Under the pieces are notes generated by a model. That model was not told the DNA's origin, made no database searches, and was given only the letters and a program-made list of their open reading frames with translations. Of a DNA stretch of 64,000 nt, positions 1 through 22,205 are shown one piece after another. A program made the translations under genes and the position numbers. The stretch comes from Escherichia coli (GTDB lineage: Bacteria > Pseudomonadota > Gammaproteobacteria > Enterobacterales > Enterobacteriaceae), in assembly GCF_024223415.1 (NCBI RefSeq), contig NZ_CP100500.1, one strand, 5' to 3'. How positions within the stretch are numbered: position 1 is the stretch's first letter; each line of letters opens with the position of its first letter.

Positions 1-207
1 ACGGTTCGACGAAAGAGGGCTTCCACAACTTGAGTGAAAGAAAATGTATGAGGCTTACCAGTGAAGCCGTTTTAAGTTATGGGTAACTTAATACACTCAC
101 TTAAGAGATTTCTACGGTTACTTTGCTGATGGCAATACGGTCAAGAAGTTATTAGCTCTGACGGTATATAACCCTCCATCTCCCCGGAAAATGCAAAACA
201 GCACTAT

Positions 208-1335
208 GTGTTGAATACCTTAAGCACAGCTACTCAGTTCATAGATGCCATCGCCTCCAGATACAGCACTTACCCTGCTCAGCCCAGACGCATCTTACTC
301 TGGTGCTGCCATAACCCTTGCCTGTTAACGAAAAATTTTGCCGAGTCTCAGCCTCCCTTCACAGTTCACATCAGCAGTATTCACAGGCGTTACAAAATTT
401 ACAACGTCAACTGGGATTAATAGCCGGAGGTGAGGCCGGGAAACAGGCAGCAACGGCAGTGGGGCTACGTTGCAGTGCTGATACTCTTCTTCGCAGGGTT
501 ATTAATACCCCGGAGACGAAACAGTCGGGCGCGCCTCATGTCGGTATTGATGAGTGGGCGTGGCATCGGGGCCACCATTACGGCACGTTAATCGTCAATC
601 TTGATACTCACCGTCCCCTCGTCCTGCTTCCCGGTTGCGATCAGAGTACGCTGGCGACCTGGTTCAGAAAATATCCGGAAATACAGGTTGTCTCACGTGA
701 CCGTGGCGGAGTCTATGCGACAGCAGCACGTGAAGGTGCACCTCAGGCCAGACAGATAGCTGATCGATGGCACCTGCTAAAAAATATTGGCGATGCGCCT
801 GAACGAATGATGTACAGACAGATGCCTCTGATACGTCTTGTTGCCAGTGGGTTGTCACCAAAGAAATCACCTAAGCCAGTACTGTCTGTGCCTGTAGCAT
901 CGCTCCGTCGTCCGGAACGCCTTAAACAGCAAACCCGCCAAAAACGGCATCAGCGTTGGACAGAGGTTATGGCACTACATAACAAGGGATGTGGGTTCAG
1001 GGGAAATATCCCGTATTACAGGCTTATCACGTGTGACAGTCAGTCTCTGGGTGTGTTCAGGAACATTCCCTGAAATGTCAACCCGGCCTCCAGAGCGAGG
1101 ACTTCTGGACCCATGGAGGGAGTGGTTAAAAGAGCAACGAGAAAGTGGTAACTTCGGCGCGTGGCTGCAAGGATGGCAGCTGATGCTGCGGCTATATGTG
1201 AGGCAATCAGCAGTCGCTGGAATAATGGGGGTTGTCGAAAGTCATGTAAATCGACTAAAAATGCTGAAAGGCCAGATGTATGGTCGAGCCGGATTTGAAC
1301 TACTCAGGCAGAGGGTCATGAGTCCACTGGCATGA
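208..1335 (+). pseudogene. ISL3-family transposase remnant, split over several frames
   Basis: ORF 318-1073 has the ISL3 transposase core (GIDEWAWHRGHHYGT...VVSRDRGGVYA...ADRWHLLKNIGD); the C-terminal part continues in another frame (991-1335) and an N-terminal-like piece lies in a third (208-420). Confidence 0.6.
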
Positions 1336-1378
1336 AAATCTCCATCCAGGTTGCGTAAGAGCCACTTTTCATCCGTCG

Positions 1379-1870
1379 TTGACATTTGTATGCCGTCACT
1401 GTGGCACTTCTCGGCCCACATTGTGTAAATGGTGGCGCAGATATCTGGCTCAGGGCATCGCTGGTCTGGAAAGCTACAGCCGTCGCTCCAAGCGTTCACC
1501 ATCAACGAAAACCAGCACTTGCGAAGTCGCTCTGATTCTGGAAGTTACGTTCTCAGCGAAATCTGGGTGCAAGACGTATTCAAAGCGAGTTAAAACGACT
1601 TCATTCAATCTCACTGGCAATAGTGCGTATTACCGTGAAGGAGATCGGTGAGTAACGGCGTTTTTCAAGGTAGTTGTCGCCTGATGTAATAAAGGTTGGA
1701 CGTTCCCAAAAGACAGACAAAGCTGAGTTTTACGCTACCGTAGATCTTTCTGCTGATGACCTGAAGGGATTGCTAGCAGAATGGTAGCATTACTATAACA
1801 GGGAACGTCCTCATAGCGCTCACAACGGTAAAACTCCGATGGAACGCTACTTTGAACTTGCTGAGAAAAC
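1379..1870 (+). pseudogene. IS481-family transposase remnant
   Basis: ORF 1379-1651 has a transposase-type HTH N-terminus; around 1790-1870 an unlinked frame encodes ...YYNRERPHSAHNGKTPMERYFELAEK, a typical integrase-core C-terminus. The middle of the gene is missing. Confidence 0.5.
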
Positions 1871-2175
1871 ACCATACTCCGATGCCGTTCATGCAAACTA
1901 TCAGCCCAATGAAGAGCATATACAGGAACAGAATTACAAGCCTGAACTTGAACTGAGAAAATTGAAACGATGTCTATGAATCACACATTTTATTACAAGG
2001 CAACAACTACCTTGAAGCTCTATGTTGAGCCTGTTTACCATTCTGTGTAATATGCATTTTCTTTAAAGTGACCGTCAGGACGGTCACTGATTACCCATTC
2101 TGAAGAGACTGTAATTAAAATTGTGTAATTGCCTGTTTTTGATATGTTCACTCCAACAACGGAGACAGGCAAACG

Positions 2176-3336
2176 ATGGACGAAAAGAAACTTAAAGTCC
2201 TTGCGGCTGAACTGGCCAAAGGCCTTAAAACCGAAGCCGACCTCAACCAGTTTTCACGCATGTTGACAAAGCTTACCGTCGAAACGGCGCTCAATGCAGA
2301 ACTGACTGACCATCTAGGTCATGAGAAAAATGCTCCTAAATCAGGCTCTAATACCCGTAATGGCTACTCGTCAAAAACGGTATTGTGCGATGATGGCGAG
2401 ATCGAACTTAACACGCCGCGTGACCGTGAAAATACCTTCGAACCACAACTGGTGAAGAAAAATCAGACCCGCATTACCGGCATGGACAACCAGATCCTGG
2501 CGCTGTATGCCAGAGGGATGACTACCCGCGAAATTACCTCAGCCTTCAAAGAAATGTACGACGCCGATGTCTCGCCCACGCTGATATCCAAAGTGACCGA
2601 TGCGGTTAAAGAACAGGTCTCTGAATGGCAAAACCGACCGTTGGATGCACTGTATCCCATTGTTTATCTTGACTGTATTGTGGTTAAGGTTCGTCACAGC
2701 GGGAGTGTCATTAACAAAGCGGTGTTCCTCGCGCTGGGCATCAATACCGACGGTCAGAAAGAGCTGCTGGATATGTGGCTGGCCGAAAATGAAGGTGCAA
2801 AGTTCTGGCTGAATGTACTGACGGAACTGAAAAATCGCGGCCTGAACGATATCCTTATCGCCTTCGTGGACGGCCTGAAAGGCTTCCCGGAAGCGATAAA
2901 TAGCGTGTACCCGCAGACGCATATTCAGCTCTGCATCATCCATATGGTGCGCAACAGCCTGAAATTCGTGTCGTGGAAGGATTACAAAGCCGTCACCAGC
3001 GGGCTGAAAGCGGTATATCAGGCCCCGACAGAGGAAGCGGCGTTGATGGCGTTGGATAAGTTTGCAGGCGTCTGGGATGAAAAATACCCGCAAATCAGCA
3101 AGAGCTGGCGCACACACTGGGAAAATCTCAACACCTTCTTCGGTTACCCACCGGATATCCGCAAGGCCATCTACACGACGAATGCCATCGAATCGCTGAA
3201 CAGTGTCATTCGGCAGGCGATAAAGAAGCGCAAGGTGTTCCCAACGGACGACTCGGTGCGAAAAGTGATTTATCTGGCGATACAGTCGGCGTCAAAAAAT
3301 GGAGTATGCCAATCCAGAACTGGCGGCTGGCAATGA
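2176..3336 (+). CDS. IS256-family transposase with C-terminal frameshift
   Basis: 386-aa ORF with IS256/mutator-type transposase similarity. The frame breaks in an A-run near 3295-3300; the +1 frame continues KKWSMPIQNWRLAMSRFIIEFGDRLSEHL to a stop at 3381-3383, the expected transposase C-terminus. Confidence 0.85.
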   Translation: MDEKKLKVLAAELAKGLKTEADLNQFSRMLTKLTVETALNAELTDHLGHEKNAPKSGSNTRNGYSSKTVLCDDGEIELNTPRDRENTFEPQLVKKNQTRITGMDNQILALYARGMTTREITSAFKEMYDADVSPTLISKVTDAVKEQVSEWQNRPLDALYPIVYLDCIVVKVRHSGSVINKAVFLALGINTDGQKELLDMWLAENEGAKFWLNVLTELKNRGLNDILIAFVDGLKGFPEAINSVYPQTHIQLCIIHMVRNSLKFVSWKDYKAVTSGLKAVYQAPTEEAALMALDKFAGVWDEKYPQISKSWRTHWENLNTFFGYPPDIRKAIYTTNAIESLNSVIRQAIKKRKVFPTDDSVRKVIYLAIQSASKNGVCQSRTGGWQ

Positions 3337-3699
3337 GCCGTTTTATTATCGAGTTCGGTGACCGCCTTAGCGAGCACCTTTAATACGGCGGCAGTTACAC
3401 AGAATTATTTACAGGGTCATTCTGAATTCAGTGCAGAATTAAAACATGTGTGCAAAATAATTTAATTCAGACAGATTTTTATTTCACTATGGCTATCCCA
3501 GAACAATCAGTACAAATAATAAAAGACATATCACAGCAACACTCCACACTGACAGCGCAAAAATAAATGCCGCCTTTGTTATCTTCATATACAAGCAACC
3601 TGTCCTGATAATCACCAACTCATGTTTTATTCTTAACCATTCGTCACAAATACAACAAAAAATAACAGCAGCAGCACCGATATCACAATATAAGATACA

Positions 3700-4155
3700 T
3701 TATTCAACACCTGAATCCCCCGCAGCTTCTCTCCCCTTTATAAAACGCCCCTTCCGGAATCCAGACCGCTGCAGTGCACGACGAAGATGACCGTATACCG
3801 TCTTGTCATTCTGCCCCGTCTCTTCTGTAATCTCCGCAATACTTAAACCTCTGTAATACCGGTTCAGTACCGCTCTGCGCTCTTCCAGCGTCAACACACC
3901 TCCGGCCGCTCTCAGATTCAGCATCGACTTATTCAGAATACAGCAGGCCTCTCCGGTAAAAAGAATACGAACAATATCTGTATACTCATCATCACAGAAT
4001 ACAAAATAATATCTGAATGACCTGCCTGACTGCACCCTTCTTCTGTCTGATATGGCATCTTCTATATATCTGATTCGACTGCTTACGGTTCCAAATATCT
4101 CTCGCAGGGCTTTTTCAAAATAAATATCTCTCGTCGCCAGGATTATATCCAGCAT
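3700..4155 (-). CDS. small HTH protein with sigma-70 region-4-like C-terminus
   Basis: 151-aa ORF directly downstream of the adhesin on the same strand; C-terminal LTLEERRAVLNRYYRGLSIAEITEETGQNDKTVYGHLRRAL resembles a sigma-70 region 4 / LuxR-type HTH. Family unassigned. Confidence 0.5.
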   Translation of the reverse strand: MLDIILATRDIYFEKALREIFGTVSSRIRYIEDAISDRRRVQSGRSFRYYFVFCDDEYTDIVRILFTGEACCILNKSMLNLRAAGGVLTLEERRAVLNRYYRGLSIAEITEETGQNDKTVYGHLRRALQRSGFRKGRFIKGREAAGDSGVE

Positions 4156-4215
4156 CTCTGTACCTCATTATATCCCGGGGGACTCCCCCGGGACAGATAT
4201 CTAAATCCTGACCTG

Positions 4216-5358
4216 TCAGAACTCAAAATTCACACCAGCATTCCACGATGCGGATGACCCACCTGCAGCAACTGCAACTTTTCCTGCCACATTCTCTGTG
4301 AAACGGTAGCCCACGCCCACCGCAATGGCCTGCTCATCACGGTAACCACCAACGGCTGCTGTCGCGTTAAATTTTCCAACACTGTATGGCTGGAAAAGAC
4401 CGGCCAGTGCCGCGCTCTGGGCTGCACTCTCCCTTAACTCCTTCCGGTTCTCTTTAATCTGCTCCTGCATATTATTCATTCTCTCTGTCGCCATCTTCTG
4501 CCAGGCTTCCGTCAAATCCAGACGATGACTGTTATTCCTTATCGCTGCTGTATTTGAGGCTATTGCTGCATCCGTCTGCGCCCTGTTCTTCACAAGCACA
4601 TCGCTGAGATGTTCTGCCTGGCTTTTCGCTTCTTTACGGACATCCCGTACACTTTTATCTGTATAAGCCCGGGAAACCTGAACTGTTTCATCCGCTTTTT
4701 CTTTTATTTCATCCTGAAGAGCAAGAGAAGATGCATCCGTATACGCCACCGCTGCCGATGTGCCTGCAATAATATCCCTGCTGAGTTCATCACGTACTGC
4801 TGTAACCTGACTGTCAGTATGAGCACGGGCATCTCTGTATACACCACCTATCTCACCACGCAGACTGTCTCCCGACACCCGTACAGCATCTGCAATGGCG
4901 TTGTCCATCTGTCCTTTTGTGGCCGCATCACTATCCTTAACACCATCTGAAACATTTATAATCCGGCGGGTTTCCGGTGCACCATCAACTGAAACTCCAT
5001 ATCCTGAAGGACCGGCCCCTACAGAAAGTACATTGTTTTCTCCATTCACCTGAGAGCCATACCCCAGAGCGACACTGTTGTCTGCATTAAAAACAGCTGT
5101 CTTATTTCCCACTGCCATGGATTTATCCGCATCCAGAATTGCTGCACCACTACCTACGGCAAAATTATATCCTGTATCATTTAGTTGACGGTCAATCACA
5201 GCTACTTTTTCAACTGACTGACCGCCACCATCAATCCAGATAATACCCGCCGATGACTCAGTAAGTGTTTTATGAGCCAAAGCCTGAGATGAGAGCAGCA
5301 GGGCCACACTCACTGCCAGCGCGCTTTTCTTTAAAAAAGCATCACGTCTTTTAAGCAT
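4216..5358 (-). CDS. YadA-like trimeric autotransporter adhesin (Eib/YadA type)
   Basis: Start taken at the internal Met (MLKRRD...) followed by a signal-peptide-like stretch; repetitive head/stalk motifs, coiled-coil-like region, and C-terminal beta-barrel anchor ending ...[16 protein letters not shown]. Confidence 0.75.
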
Positions 5359-5844
5359 TCTGTTATTCTCCTGTATTATTACTTCACCAGCCAGAACGGT
5401 AGTGCGGAGCAAAAATACAGTGATAAGAATCCTCTTTTATTAATTTAATAATGCCAGGAATATTATTGTGTATAATATGCGCCCTCAATTTAAGCAGCAG
5501 AAAAGCAATGACGCGAAAATCATTAAAATACATACAGATAAAACATCATAACTATAATTATAATAAGCGCGCTTATTTTAGCATCTGAACATTTAAAGTA
5601 CTGCTATCACAAAACAATAAAAATCCTGGTTAATATCTCTGATGATTGAATGAGAAATTCACGATGTCTGGTGAGAATTCTGTTCAAAACGAGGAATGCA
5701 GACGTACACGTGGCAGGTATGGACTTCCACCGATTTAACTTTTTTCCTTCCTTGTATTTACACATCACACATTTTGCGCTACAAAAATTTCACGTGGCAC
5801 GCACCACGTGATCCGTAGAAAAGCCTCTTGTTACGAATTTCGTA

Positions 5845-5879
5845 AACCGCACGTCTGTCTGGTCGTGCGGATTTTTTAT
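5845..5879 (+). terminator. intrinsic-terminator-like hairpin
   Basis: Stem ccgcacg/cgtgcgg with a 10-nt loop, followed by attttttat; no plus-strand ORF of 60 aa or more upstream. Confidence 0.4.
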
Positions 5880-6072
5880 CCGTCAACTTCACATGAAACC
5901 CGCCAGAGCACTGTTTCCGGATTCAGACATCAGGCATATTATCATCCACGATGTCGTGAACAAGATCACACTTTTGCAATTCCTTTATTGATCGAAAGCA
6001 GTTAATCACGGAAATTAATTACCGGAGTGAAAGCATTACTGCATCGTAAATATCTACCATTTTTGACTACAC

Positions 6073-20028: not shown

Positions 20029-20050
20029 TTCGATTCCGAGTCCGGCACCA
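20029..20050 (+). repeat. partial direct repeat of the tRNA-Phe 3' end (att site of the pheU island)
   Basis: ttcgattccgagtccggcacca matches the 3' end of E. coli tRNA-Phe (GGTTCGATTCCGAGTCCGGGCACCA) except for one missing G; no full tRNA gene is present, so this is the distal repeat. Confidence 0.75.
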
Positions 20051-20666: not shown

Positions 20667-22205
20667 ATGCAACAACCTGTAGTTCGCGTTGGCGAATGGC
20701 TTGTTACTCCGTCCATAAACCAAATTAGCCGCAATGGGCGTCAACTTACCCTTGAGCCGAGATTAATCGATCTTCTGGTTTTCTTTGCTCAACACAGTGG
20801 CGAAGTACTTAGCAGGGATGAACTTATCGATAATGTCTGGAAGAGAAGTATTGTCACCAATCACGTTGTGACGCAGAGTATCTCAGAACTACGTAAGTCA
20901 TTAAAAGATAATGATGAAGATAGTCCTGTCTATATCGCTACTGTACCAAAGCGCGGCTATAAATTAATGGTGCCGGTTATCTGGTACAGCGAAGAAGAGG
21001 GAGAGGAAATAATGCTATCTTCGCCTCCCCCTATACCAGAGGCGGTTCCTGCCACAGATTCTCCCTCCCACAGTCTTAACATTCAAAACACCGCAACGCC
21101 ACCTGAACAATCCCCAGTTAAAAGCAAACGATTCACTACCTTTTGGGTATGGTTTTTTTTCCTGTTGTCCTTAGGTATCTGTGTAGCACTGGTAGCGTTT
21201 TCAAGTCTTGATACACGTCTTCCGATGAGCAAATCGCGTATTTTGCTCAATCCACGCGATATTGACATTAATATGGTAAATAAAAGTTGTAACAGCTGGA
21301 GTTCCCCGTATCAGCTCTCTTACGCGATAGGCGTGGGTGATTTGGTGGCGACATCACTTAACACCTTCTCCACCTTTATGGTGCATGACAAAATCAACTA
21401 CAACATTGATGAACCGAGCAGTTCCGGTAAAACATTATCTATTGCGTTTGTTAATCAGCGCCAATACCGTGCTCAACAATGCTTTATGTCGATAAAATTG
21501 GTAGACAATGCAGATGGTTCAACCATGCTGGATAAACGTTATGTCATCACTAACGGTAATCAGCTGGCGATTCAAAATGATTTACTGGAGAGTTTATCAA
21601 AAGCGTTAAACCAACCGTGGCCACAACGAATGCAGGAGACGCTCCAGCAAATTTTGCCTCATCGTGGTGCGTTATTAACTAATTTTTATCAGGCACATGA
21701 TTATTTACTGCATGGCGATGATAAATCATTGAACCGTGCGAGTGAATTATTAGGTGAGATTGTTCAATCATCCCCAGAATTTACCTACGCGAGAGCAGAA
21801 AAAGCATTAGTTGATATCGTGCGCCATTCTCAACACCCTTTAGATGAAAAACAATTAGCAGCACTGAACACAGAAATAGACAACATTGTTACACTACCGG
21901 AATTGAATAACCTGTCCATTATATATCAAATAAAAGCGGTCAGTGCTCTGGTAAAAGGTAAAACAGATGAGTCTTACCAGGCGATAAATACTGGTATTGA
22001 TCTTGAAATGTCCTGGCTAAATTATGTGTTGCTTGGCAAGGTTTATGAAATGAAGGGGATGAACCGGGAAGCAGCTGATGCATATCTCACCGCCTTTAAT
22101 TTACGCCCAGGGGCAAACACCCTTTACTGGATTGAAAATGGTATATTCCAGACTTCTGTTCCTTATGTTGTACCTTATCTCGACAAATTTCTCGCTTCAG
22201 AATAA
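20667..22205 (+). CDS. cadC: CadC, membrane-bound ToxR-like activator of cadBA
   Basis: 512-aa ORF matching CadC (N-terminal winged-helix DNA-binding domain, single TM segment, periplasmic sensor). Confidence 0.95.
   Translation: MQQPVVRVGEWLVTPSINQISRNGRQLTLEPRLIDLLVFFAQHSGEVLSRDELIDNVWKRSIVTNHVVTQSISELRKSLKDNDEDSPVYIATVPKRGYKLMVPVIWYSEEEGEEIMLSSPPPIPEAVPATDSPSHSLNIQNTATPPEQSPVKSKRFTTFWVWFFFLLSLGICVALVAFSSLDTRLPMSKSRILLNPRDIDINMVNKSCNSWSSPYQLSYAIGVGDLVATSLNTFSTFMVHDKINYNIDEPSSSGKTLSIAFVNQRQYRAQQCFMSIKLVDNADGSTMLDKRYVITNGNQLAIQNDLLESLSKALNQPWPQRMQETLQQILPHRGALLTNFYQAHDYLLHGDDKSLNRASELLGEIVQSSPEFTYARAEKALVDIVRHSQHPLDEKQLAALNTEIDNIVTLPELNNLSIIYQIKAVSALVKGKTDESYQAINTGIDLEMSWLNYVLLGKVYEMKGMNREAADAYLTAFNLRPGANTLYWIENGIFQTSVPYVVPYLDKFLASE

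Follow-up and report, generated by a model that had tools for sequence, protein, structure and literature searches.

Nested insertion-sequence remnants at a probable module junction in an Escherichia coli genomic island

The first 3.4 kb of the window (the whole stretch of Escherichia coli DNA analysed here, 64,000 nucleotides of contig NZ_CP100500.1) raise the question of whether a row of broken transposase genes has simply piled up in a tolerant part of a genomic island, or marks a place where the island was put together. Positions 1–3426 are almost wholly insertion-sequence (IS) debris, with the three main elements on the plus strand, and in this ordinary stack the ISs, dead or crippled, are nested in one another. 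A preliminary description had listed three damaged IS families in tandem; their presence, coordinates and damage hold, but nested insertion plus deletion replaces the simple tandem, and five families (ISL3, IS481, IS21, IS3 and IS256) are represented by six IS lineages, with no piece encoding a complete transposase. The matches of all three main elements are far above chance, their intact relatives clear the curated NCBIfam cut-offs for ISL3, IS481 and IS256, and RefSeq marks the same three pseudogenes in near-identical loci. Very probably, ISs inserted into one another and partly deleted have left a fixed scar here, where two modules of a putative tRNA-Phe-type genomic island meet. It consists of the following features.

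1–1384, plus strand: non-functional ISL3 element related to ISEc38 (88–92% nt identity; blastn, tblastn and Pfam)
1385–1623, plus strand: N-terminal piece of an IS481-family element, positions 106–344 of its 1020-nt intact relative (95.4% identity to L004 1501–1739)
1624–1656, plus strand: 33-nt terminal inverted repeat (IR) of an IS21-family element, ISEc12 type (100% identical to L003 183–215)
1657–1693, minus strand: 37-nt truncated right end of an IS3-family element, Y (matches the right end of full or partial E. coli Y copies, L006, L119 and L120)
1694–1987, plus strand: C-terminal piece of the IS481-family element, reference positions 724–1020 (96.3% identity to L004 2119–2415)
1988–2016, plus strand: second, inverted, partial right end of Y, positions ∼8–38 (reverse matches to L006, L062, L078 and L120)
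2026–2088, minus strand: ∼63-nt tip (IR and last codons), all that deletion has left of an older IS256-family element (90% identity to L008 1801–1861)
2097–2104, no strand: left copy of a target-site duplication, ATTCTGAA (exact repeat of 3419–3426)
2105–3418, plus strand: ISEc39-like IS256 element of 1314 nt (96% identity to the CFT073 ISEc39 copy, end to end)
3294–3299, plus strand: A6 run, where the ISEc39-like copy has its only lesion (other copies have A7; alignment to CFT073)
3419–3426, no strand: right copy of the target-site duplication, ATTCTGAA (exact repeat of 2097–2104)

The ISL3 element, whose left IR is degenerate, starts ∼8 nt to the left of window position 1 and ends in a right IR (1341–1384) that matches ISEc38 at 40 out of 44 positions. 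Its transposase pseudogene (ATG at 79, running to 1335; RefSeq label 'ISL3 family transposase, frameshifted') had been described as split over at least three frames; the split is real, and tblastn recovers at least five collinear pieces as well as in-frame stops, but the pieces alternate between two frames only (+1 and +3). When the intact ISEc38 (L005 476–2239, 1764 nt) is compared by blastn, window positions 20–51, 64–1151 and 1150–1384 align and L005 1659–2005 is absent, a 347-nt internal deletion at 1150/1151; a further ∼17 nt are gone near 289–300. The pieces share 79–94% aa identity with the ISEc38 transposase (376 bits against NCBIfam NF033550, cut-off 180), and about half of the Pfam domain DDE_Tnp_ISL3 is recognizable (PF01610; E = 2.3e-17, model positions 1–137 of 240). 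Where an ISL3 element would have two matching IRs and an 8-nt target duplication, this copy has a left IR with four indels, partly outside the window, and flanks (TTTGCATT and TTTGTATG) that agree at six out of eight positions. No empty site was found for the element, which is present in all 51 out of 51 genomes with the same variant of the flanking MFS gene.

The IS481-family element survives as N- and C-terminal stubs, just as the preliminary description had it. With the intact transposase as tblastn query, the stubs cover aa 23–104 (window 1385–1631) and aa 229–323 (1692–1976), with E-values of 7e-55 and 4e-27. The first is in frame +2 for aa 23–85 and in frame +3 for aa 75–104, a 1-nt insertion near 1539 shifting the frame, and the second (93% identity) has a CAG-to-TAG premature stop at 1785–1787; overall, the pieces are 75–93% identical in aa sequence to the 323-aa intact transposase; against NCBIfam NF033577 (cut-off 224), the intact relative reaches 253 bits. 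Because reference positions 1–105 and 345–723 are absent (the internal loss is 379 nt), the window copy has lost its left IR, and its catalytic core for the most part. The first 22 codons are absent as well, and with the first 105 nt missing only the right IR is seen (1963–1987), not the two terminal IRs and target duplication of an IS481 element. No uninterrupted target for its right flank was found: the 47-nt spacer 1986–2032 occurs in 64 block-carrying genomes only. The break at 1623 was compared with that of a widespread N-terminal IS481 stub of other E. coli, but the two are not the same, as that stub extends 35 nt further.

Three smaller IS pieces go beyond the preliminary description, namely the IS21-family IR, the IS3-family ends and the older IS256-family tip; all three lack annotation in the records examined. 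The reference for the IS21-family IR is an ISEc12 end from EC974, where that copy interrupts mliC, and the tip of the IR in the window is joined precisely to the interior of IS481, at position 344/345. It is a 33-nt fragment and not an element, without the istA/istB genes and multi-repeat termini of the IS21 family. Strain F1 E4 has an IS256-family pseudogene whose right end, TGAG included, corresponds to the older IS256-family tip; the latter also pairs with the right IR of the ISEc39-like element (inverted repeat I2).

Y is an IS3-family element of ∼1.63 kb with two ORFs (163 and 368 aa in full copies elsewhere, whose annotation is IS3 family). Other Gammaproteobacteria have the 22-mer GTTTTTCAAGGTAGTTGTCGCC in 105 DNA stretches; where both ends were recovered (17 copies), it lies at the end of a 1.62–1.66-kb element. 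Only a 37-nt and a 29-nt end are present in the window, without the two overlapping ORFs (HTH and rve) and the TG...CA-type IRs of the IS3 family; these two inverted copies span about 30–37 nt each and form an inverted repeat (I4: 1664–1682/1998–2016, 95% complementary). The trinucleotide AAA at 1691–1693 is common to the first end and the adjoining IS481 piece. The second end directly adjoins the IS481 right IR at its tip, and the 9 nt after it (2017–2025) are unassigned. No simple event accounts for the origin of this inverted duplicate at 1988–2016. We rejected its reading as the left IR of Y (with IS481 nested between both Y ends), since full copies have CCCCCTGTGTCAGCATAGTTGTCGCCTCAA as their left IR, without the TGTAATAAAA part. 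Y copies of E. coli, Photorhabdus and Xenorhabdus adjoin IS21-family IRs 33–34 nt from the tip; that Y targets IS21-family IRs specifically is not established, as marine copies have unrelated flanks. A clean 4-nt duplication is seen in only two out of ∼11 complete Y copies.

The ISEc39-like element is the only copy in the block that keeps both ends (intact IRs at 2105–2133, GAGACTGTAATTAAAATTGTGTAATTGCC, and at 3390–3418, reverse complement GACCCTGTAAATAATTCTGTGTAACTGCC), and for this reason it alone could still be moved, though only with a transposase supplied in trans. Its site is found uninterrupted in EC974 and XH992, with a single ATTCTGAA and no ISEc39 insertion. The element has a Mutator-type DDE transposase (Pfam Transposase_mut, PF00872; E = 2.3e-114), IRs of ∼25–30 nt with the subterminal TGTAAA-like motif described for the IS256 family (PMC7780238) and a target-site duplication in the 8–9-nt range, and the restored protein scores 418 bits against NCBIfam NF033543 (IS256; cut-off 150); a single uninterrupted transposase ORF of ∼400 aa, however, is lacking, and the copy is an IS256 member by descent and now a pseudogene. 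Substitutions relative to ISEc39 that cluster in two patches, at about 2442–2545 and 2800–2870, suggest a recombinant variant.

Loss of the last ∼30 codons had been attributed to a change in an A run at about 3295–3300. Other ISEc39 copies have A7 and therefore one A has been lost in the window copy, within what is now A6 at 3294–3299; the last 28 codons are replaced by 12 out-of-frame ones, and the ORF 2176–3336 encodes 386 aa, whereas with A7 it would reach 3383 and encode 402 aa. Homopolymer runs are error-prone and a doubt about this one had been raised before, but it is hardly conceivable that the elements are really intact and their frameshifts artefacts of sequencing or assembly. The exact A6 form is reproduced in 65 independent complete genomes (with a 69-nt record span in the examples listed), namely all those that carry the window insertion, and an equal count of records is obtained when element and flanks together are matched at 99% or higher. 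The longer form is found at other loci only: among 212 genomes with ISEc39 elsewhere (95–99% match; 98.6% and a 70-nt span in nearly all examples listed) none has A6. The damage to the ISL3 and IS481 elements, moreover, consists of 347- and 379-nt deletions and missing IRs, which are impossible as base-calling errors, and the block is at least 99.7% identical across 50 assemblies. The A6 allele is real and confined to one locus.

The change from A7 to A6 is predicted to be an inactivating lesion; the lost C-terminal tail is conserved and aligns with the last residues of ISCth4 TnpA (6XG8). A still active copy would need either a working 386-aa truncated transposase, or −1 slippage on the heptamer A_AAA_AAU (UC-A-AAA-AAU, in phase) to give a full-length protein with a K-to-N change. 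Such activity would accord with the IRs, both identical to those of the CFT073 copy, with an ORF free of further lesions, with conserved Pfam and NCBIfam core regions that end at aa 371–377, around the frameshift at aa 375, and with the phase of the heptamer, which follows from the sequence. We nevertheless consider it very unlikely, given that the tail is conserved as far as Clostridium ISCth4, that no stable structure is predicted downstream of the A run (z = −0.98, no different from shuffles), that all 65 genomes have A6 at this one locus and at no other, and that no second ISEc39-like copy is found within the 64-kb window. That the lesion throttled the element rather than killing it is, if anything, harder still to believe: by creating the in-phase heptamer within the candidate −1 frameshift sequence UCAAAAAAUGG, the A deletion would let rare slippage yield the full-length transposase (with K changed to N) and low-level movement, and, both IRs being intact, the graveyard would then still contain one movable element. 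We retain the predicted inactivation.

For the older events, it is from the geometry of the junctions only that we infer an order. An IS481-family element may first have inserted at the right end of an IS3-family element, either within that end or beside it; an IS21-family element, already with another IS3-family copy 33 nt from its tip, may then have inserted into IS481 at 344/345; and a deletion may have taken out all between the IS3 end and IS481 position 723. The loss of the first 105 nt of IS481 would come next, caused either by the ISEc38-like ISL3 element or by a rearrangement at the right end of that element, which itself decayed afterwards. The last insertion was the transposition of the ISEc39-like element to a site beside the older IS256-family stub, duplicating ATTCTGAA; this insertion is shown directly by the target duplication and the empty site. 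Finally, this copy lost one A from A7, and with it the conserved C-terminal transposase segment. Searches with the MFS-gene flank and the IS481 spacer found no genome with an intermediate state. Repeated insertion, as proposed earlier, is borne out by the IRs, 8-nt duplication and empty site of the ISEc39-like copy, by the IS21 tip joined to IS481 and by the IS481 right IR abutting an IS3 end, and decay by the deletions, frameshifts and stops in the ISL3, IS481 and IS256 pieces.

Across 50 complete genomes of poultry and human origin, a 4.2-kb block keeps an identity of at least 99.7%; the decay is therefore old and fixed, not ongoing in the source strain. On its left, the block is flanked by the aerobactin genes with their shiF-like MFS gene; on its right come genes for a sigma-like HTH protein and a YadA-like adhesin. 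Similarity to several hundred other MFS-gene records (∼88%, mostly plasmids) stops at the gene end, and the right module begins at 2030, beside mliC, in EC974 and XH992. Because it lies exactly at the seam of the aerobactin module and the mliC-side module, the block is a module junction and not an arbitrary neutral spot; its position suggests that IS elements mediated the joining of the two modules.

Alternatively, the ISs may have piled up where nothing essential was hit, with no part in bringing the modules together. Each identifiable insertion or junction does fall in another IS remnant and no intact gene is interrupted by an IS in the block, and such neutral ground would also agree with an Rfam scan of window positions 1–6000 (no families) and a promoter/terminator scan (two promoter-like sites versus 5.4 expected, nothing notable). 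But the block coincides exactly with the points at which the similarity of both neighbour modules to copies elsewhere ends, and in GI-pheV islands gene modules are separated by ISs at their borders and whole-module losses have been ascribed to flanking ISs (PLoS Genet 2024, PMC11537424). We regard a purely neutral dumping ground as possible but rather unlikely. The preliminary description's tolerant part of the island fits as far as the insertions into IS remnants go, but the block marks a module junction.

The same block is found in islands beside yghD/gsp in SMS-3-5, VTB96933v and E41, and beside cadC in the window. Collinearity of the window with SMS-3-5 (kps, gsp) was considered and proved wrong: it ends after ∼12 kb for SMS-3-5 and VTB96933v and at 20,050 for E41, and the window runs into cadCBA. 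As to a tRNA-Phe island of the GI-pheV/pheU type, modules and IS separators are seen, the core flank is cadC here and yghD/gsp in other strains, and neither tRNA genes nor integrases lie inside the window. The ISEc39 insertion and the A6 allele are a shared marker of one aerobactin-island lineage in poultry and human E. coli, at two chromosomal sites. The block is passively inherited with the island, and no function has been demonstrated for it. It is a textbook case of IS debris at a genomic-island module junction, of small importance, and its pseudogene status is marked in public annotation; what it supplies is precise junction coordinates and a dated order of events.

Compared with known elements, the ISL3 copy resembles the intact ISEc38 of plasmid pSK6988_164k in nucleotide sequence (88–92% identity), right IR and gene order, but is ∼370 nt shorter, with the 347-nt deletion, several 1–2-nt indels, stops and a degenerate left IR; with identity as low as 88%, it is a separate lineage and not a recent ISEc38 copy. 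Both IS481 pieces are 95–96% identical to the 1020-nt element of WWCOL-315 (323-aa transposase, WP_021543695.1), with 23 out of 25 right-IR positions shared, but lack positions 1–105 and 345–723 and carry a frameshift and a stop. The ISEc39-like copy shares 96% nt identity over 1314 nt, identical IRs, gene layout and an 8-nt target duplication with ISEc39 of CFT073, Nissle 1917 and ABU 83972, and differs in having one A fewer in the A7 run and a truncated transposase; the CFT073 copy has a separate inactivating lesion, a 1-nt deletion at codon 12. Residues 18–397 of the restored 402-aa protein align to residues 28–409 of ISCth4 TnpA (Clostridium thermocellum, PDB 6XG8; E = 2e-108), a structurally characterised IS256 transposase, and the alignment takes in the C-terminal KW-M--NW-L motif and reaches residue 409 out of 410. 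The window element shares the subterminal TGTAA(A/T) IR motif and 8-nt duplications of this family, but ISCth4 is another element in another host, and the window copy is without the conserved tail. As for the island, it is like the mosaic GI-pheV islands (PMC11537424) in having an aerobactin shiF-iuc-iutA module, a yee/CP4-like module and ISs between modules, but it adjoins cadC instead of yghD/gsp.

The left end of the window, which is Escherichia coli DNA, carries a plus-strand block of insertion sequence (IS) debris; this is an ordinary feature that current knowledge and annotation already account for, and it is fixed in many genomes. Fifty complete genomes match window 1-4200 at 99.7-99.9% identity (at least 80% of its length covered), and in the matching genomes RefSeq annotates three genes on one strand, in this order: 'ISL3 family transposase, frameshifted', a partial 'integrase core domain-containing protein' and 'IS256 family transposase, frameshifted'. 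Pfam and NCBIfam confirm the ISL3, IS481 and IS256 families, both in the window ORFs and in intact relatives. The preliminary description placed these three families, all damaged, in tandem; the families and the damage are borne out, but there are six IS lineages from five families, and they are nested, not merely tandem.

Features of the IS block (plus-strand coordinates; IR, terminal inverted repeat)
20-51, 64-1151 and 1150-1384: ISL3-family element, aligning to intact ISEc38 at 88-92% identity
about 1384-1623: IS481 N-terminal piece, positions 106-344 of an intact 1020-nt relative
1624-1656: IS21-family (ISEc12) tip, 33 nt, 100% identical to the end of an ISEc12 copy
1657-1693: right end of an IS3-family element
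about 1691-1987: IS481 C-terminal piece (right IR 1963-1987), positions 724-1020 of the relative
1988-2016: second IS3-family right end, inverted and partial, abutting the IS481 right IR tip
2026-2088: IS256-family tip from an older element, oriented opposite to the next
2105-3418: ISEc39-like IS256-family element (IRs 2105-2133 and 3390-3418, bearing the subterminal TGTAA(A/T) motif of the family)

Compared with intact ISEc38 (1764 nt, transposase of 539 aa), the ISL3 element has lost 347 nt at 1150/1151 (positions 1659-2005 in L005, the plasmid pSK6988_164k copy), lacks ∼17 nt around 289-300 and has several 1-2-nt indels besides. Its transposase gene (ATG at 79) is split, as proposed, though not over three or more frames: protein-level comparison gives at least five collinear pieces, interrupted by in-frame stops, all in frame +1 or +3. 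Of the two IRs, the right one (1341-1384) is well preserved; the left one has degenerated, with four indels, and judging from the SMS-3-5 locus starts ∼8 nt to the left of the window's first base. Because the 8-nt flanks agree at only 6/8 positions, a simple insertion cannot be shown for this element.

The IS481 gene is indeed reduced to N- and C-terminal stubs, by comparison with the intact relative in strain WWCOL-315 (transposase of 323 aa, above the NCBIfam IS481 cut-off): the element has lost its left IR, 22 codons from the start of the gene and 379 nt from the middle, and what remains is damaged further by a one-base insertion near 1539 and by TAG in place of CAG at 1785-1787. The left truncation point lies directly against the terminal base of the right IR of ISL3. 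The junction between the IS21-family tip and IS481 falls precisely at IS481 position 344/345, the hallmark of a true insertion.

The adjoining IS3-family end carries a 22-mer, GTTTTTCAAGGTAGTTGTCGCC, found exactly in 105 DNA stretches (L014-L118) in a scan of species-representative genomes; in the 17 copies with both ends recoverable it terminates an IS3-family element of 1.62-1.66 kb, with two ORFs (163 and 368 aa) in the one contig with ORFs listed. This end is strikingly conserved between genera, its hosts including marine Gammaproteobacteria (Marinomonas, Shewanella, Pseudoalteromonas, Photobacterium, Alteromonas, Colwellia and Vibrio, among others), and E. coli too carries full or partial copies of the element. 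The 70-nt composite of the 33-nt IS21 IR tip and the IS3-family right end (window 1624-1693) recurs in E. coli, Photorhabdus and Xenorhabdus at 88-97% identity: in three E. coli loci (L006, 3001-3072; L120, 1168-1237; L119, ∼2830-2870) and in L062, L063 and L078 of the scan. At its opposite end, the IS3-family element in L119 meets the second ISEc12-type IR, again 33-34 nt from the tip. The recurring composite and L119 hint that the element may prefer targets inside IS21-family IRs. A comparable miniature pile of IS ends lies near iss on the ColV-type plasmid pVTB926v-1 (L009, 3501-3575), where a 47-nt fragment of the IS21-tip/IS3-end is followed, 4 nt on, by a 23-nt ISL3 (ISEc38-type) IR tip.

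The 297-nt C-terminal IS481 piece is flanked by the IS3-family end in two copies of ∼30 nt, inverted relative to each other (1664-1693 and 1988-2016), and the spacer containing the second is confined to the 64 block-carrying genomes. This duplicate fits no simple transposition or inversion event. As a working idea, the two copies would form a stem and its loop would be lost, in a deletion reaching from the base of the stem to position 723 of IS481, perhaps through AAA microhomology. Comparison with full copies ruled out that 1988-2016 is the element's other IR.

In the matching genomes RefSeq places iucABCD-iutA (aerobactin) and an MFS transporter gene upstream of the block, and genes for a sigma-like HTH protein and a YadA-like adhesin downstream. 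On the left, several hundred other MFS-gene records (∼88% identity, mostly plasmids) lose similarity where the MFS gene ends, and the chromosomal variant already has the ISL3 element in 51/51 genomes; on the right, the module from 2030 onward adjoins mliC in other strains (EC974 and XH992). The block lies at the seam between two modules with different histories. Any IS role in joining them, like the order of the older events, is something we infer.

Collinearity of the window with strain E41 stops at 20,050, and island DNA ends near there, adjoining cadC (ORF 20667-22205), then cadBA and further core genes. In SMS-3-5, VTB96933v and E41 the island, with a near-identical IS block, adjoins yghD/gsp instead of the cad locus; we take the cadC and yghD/gsp positions to be the pheU and pheV sides. 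The 64-kb window contains no tRNA gene. A published study describes GI-pheV islands as assemblies of gene modules with insertion sequences between them, and ascribes whole-module losses to the flanking IS (PMC11537424).

Three observations concern the neighbouring genes. The HTH small protein (3700-4155, minus strand) is sigma-70 region-4-like (Pfam Sigma70_r4_2, E=2.2e-07); its gene always occurs together with the YadA-like gene, and the pair adjoins mliC in EC974 and XH992. The stalk of the YadA-like adhesin (4216-5412, minus strand) holds a ∼99-nt tandem repeat, whose copy number varies between strains, since window 4784-4873 matches three successive EC974 positions. In SMS-3-5 iucD (L001, 818-2151, upstream of the window equivalent) is annotated as frameshifted, so the aerobactin operon beside the block may be inactive there.

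The ISEc39-like element is 96% identical end to end to the CFT073 ISEc39 copy and has an identical 8-nt duplication, ATTCTGAA, on either side. In EC974 and XH992 the surroundings are the same but unbroken, with a single ATTCTGAA, beside mliC, which demonstrates the insertion; the element landed 8 nt beyond the inner border of the older IS256 tip, 71 nt from its outer end. This empty site, the IS21 tip junction and the lesions together uphold the earlier reading of repeated insertion and decay, and the decay is ancient and fixed.

The loss of the IS256-family transposase C-terminus by a single-base change in an A-run also held: the run is A6 in the window (3294-3299) and A7 in CFT073, so 386 aa are encoded, the last 12 of them foreign, and restoring one A gives a 402-aa transposase ending KKWSMPIQNWRLAMSRFIIEFGDRLSEHL. 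When genomes were queried with a 69-nt segment across the run, 65 matched A6 exactly (69-nt span among the matches listed), and the same number of records match element plus flanks at 99% or more, placing them at the window locus; another 212 genomes matched at 95-99% at other loci with the longer form (70 nt, 98.6%, in nearly all matches listed; most listed examples are annotated ISEc39). Given this split by locus, the A6 change is real, arose at the window locus and was inherited with it. That the frameshifts are sequencing or assembly artefacts is extremely improbable, with 50 genomes sharing the block, 65 sharing the exact A6, and losses as large as the 347 nt of ISL3 and 379 nt of IS481.

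The tail missing from the window copy corresponds in alignment to the extreme C-terminus of ISCth4 TnpA, an IS256-family transposase of solved structure (6XG8), so this segment of the enzyme is conserved; the core models of Pfam and NCBIfam stop just before it. The truncated transposase has likely lost its function. The copy could still be active if the shortened enzyme works, or if -1 slippage occurs on the in-phase A_AAA_AAU heptamer that the deletion made, but we consider this unlikely: the conserved tail is missing, no downstream structure was found, and there is no second A6 copy in the window or among the genomes queried.

The CFT073 ISEc39 copy (L002) is likewise a pseudogene, but by a 1-nt deletion at codon 12 (equivalent to ∼2209 of the window). 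The two copies also differ in two clustered patches (∼2442-2545 and 2800-2870), a pattern that suggests recombination between IS256-family relatives.
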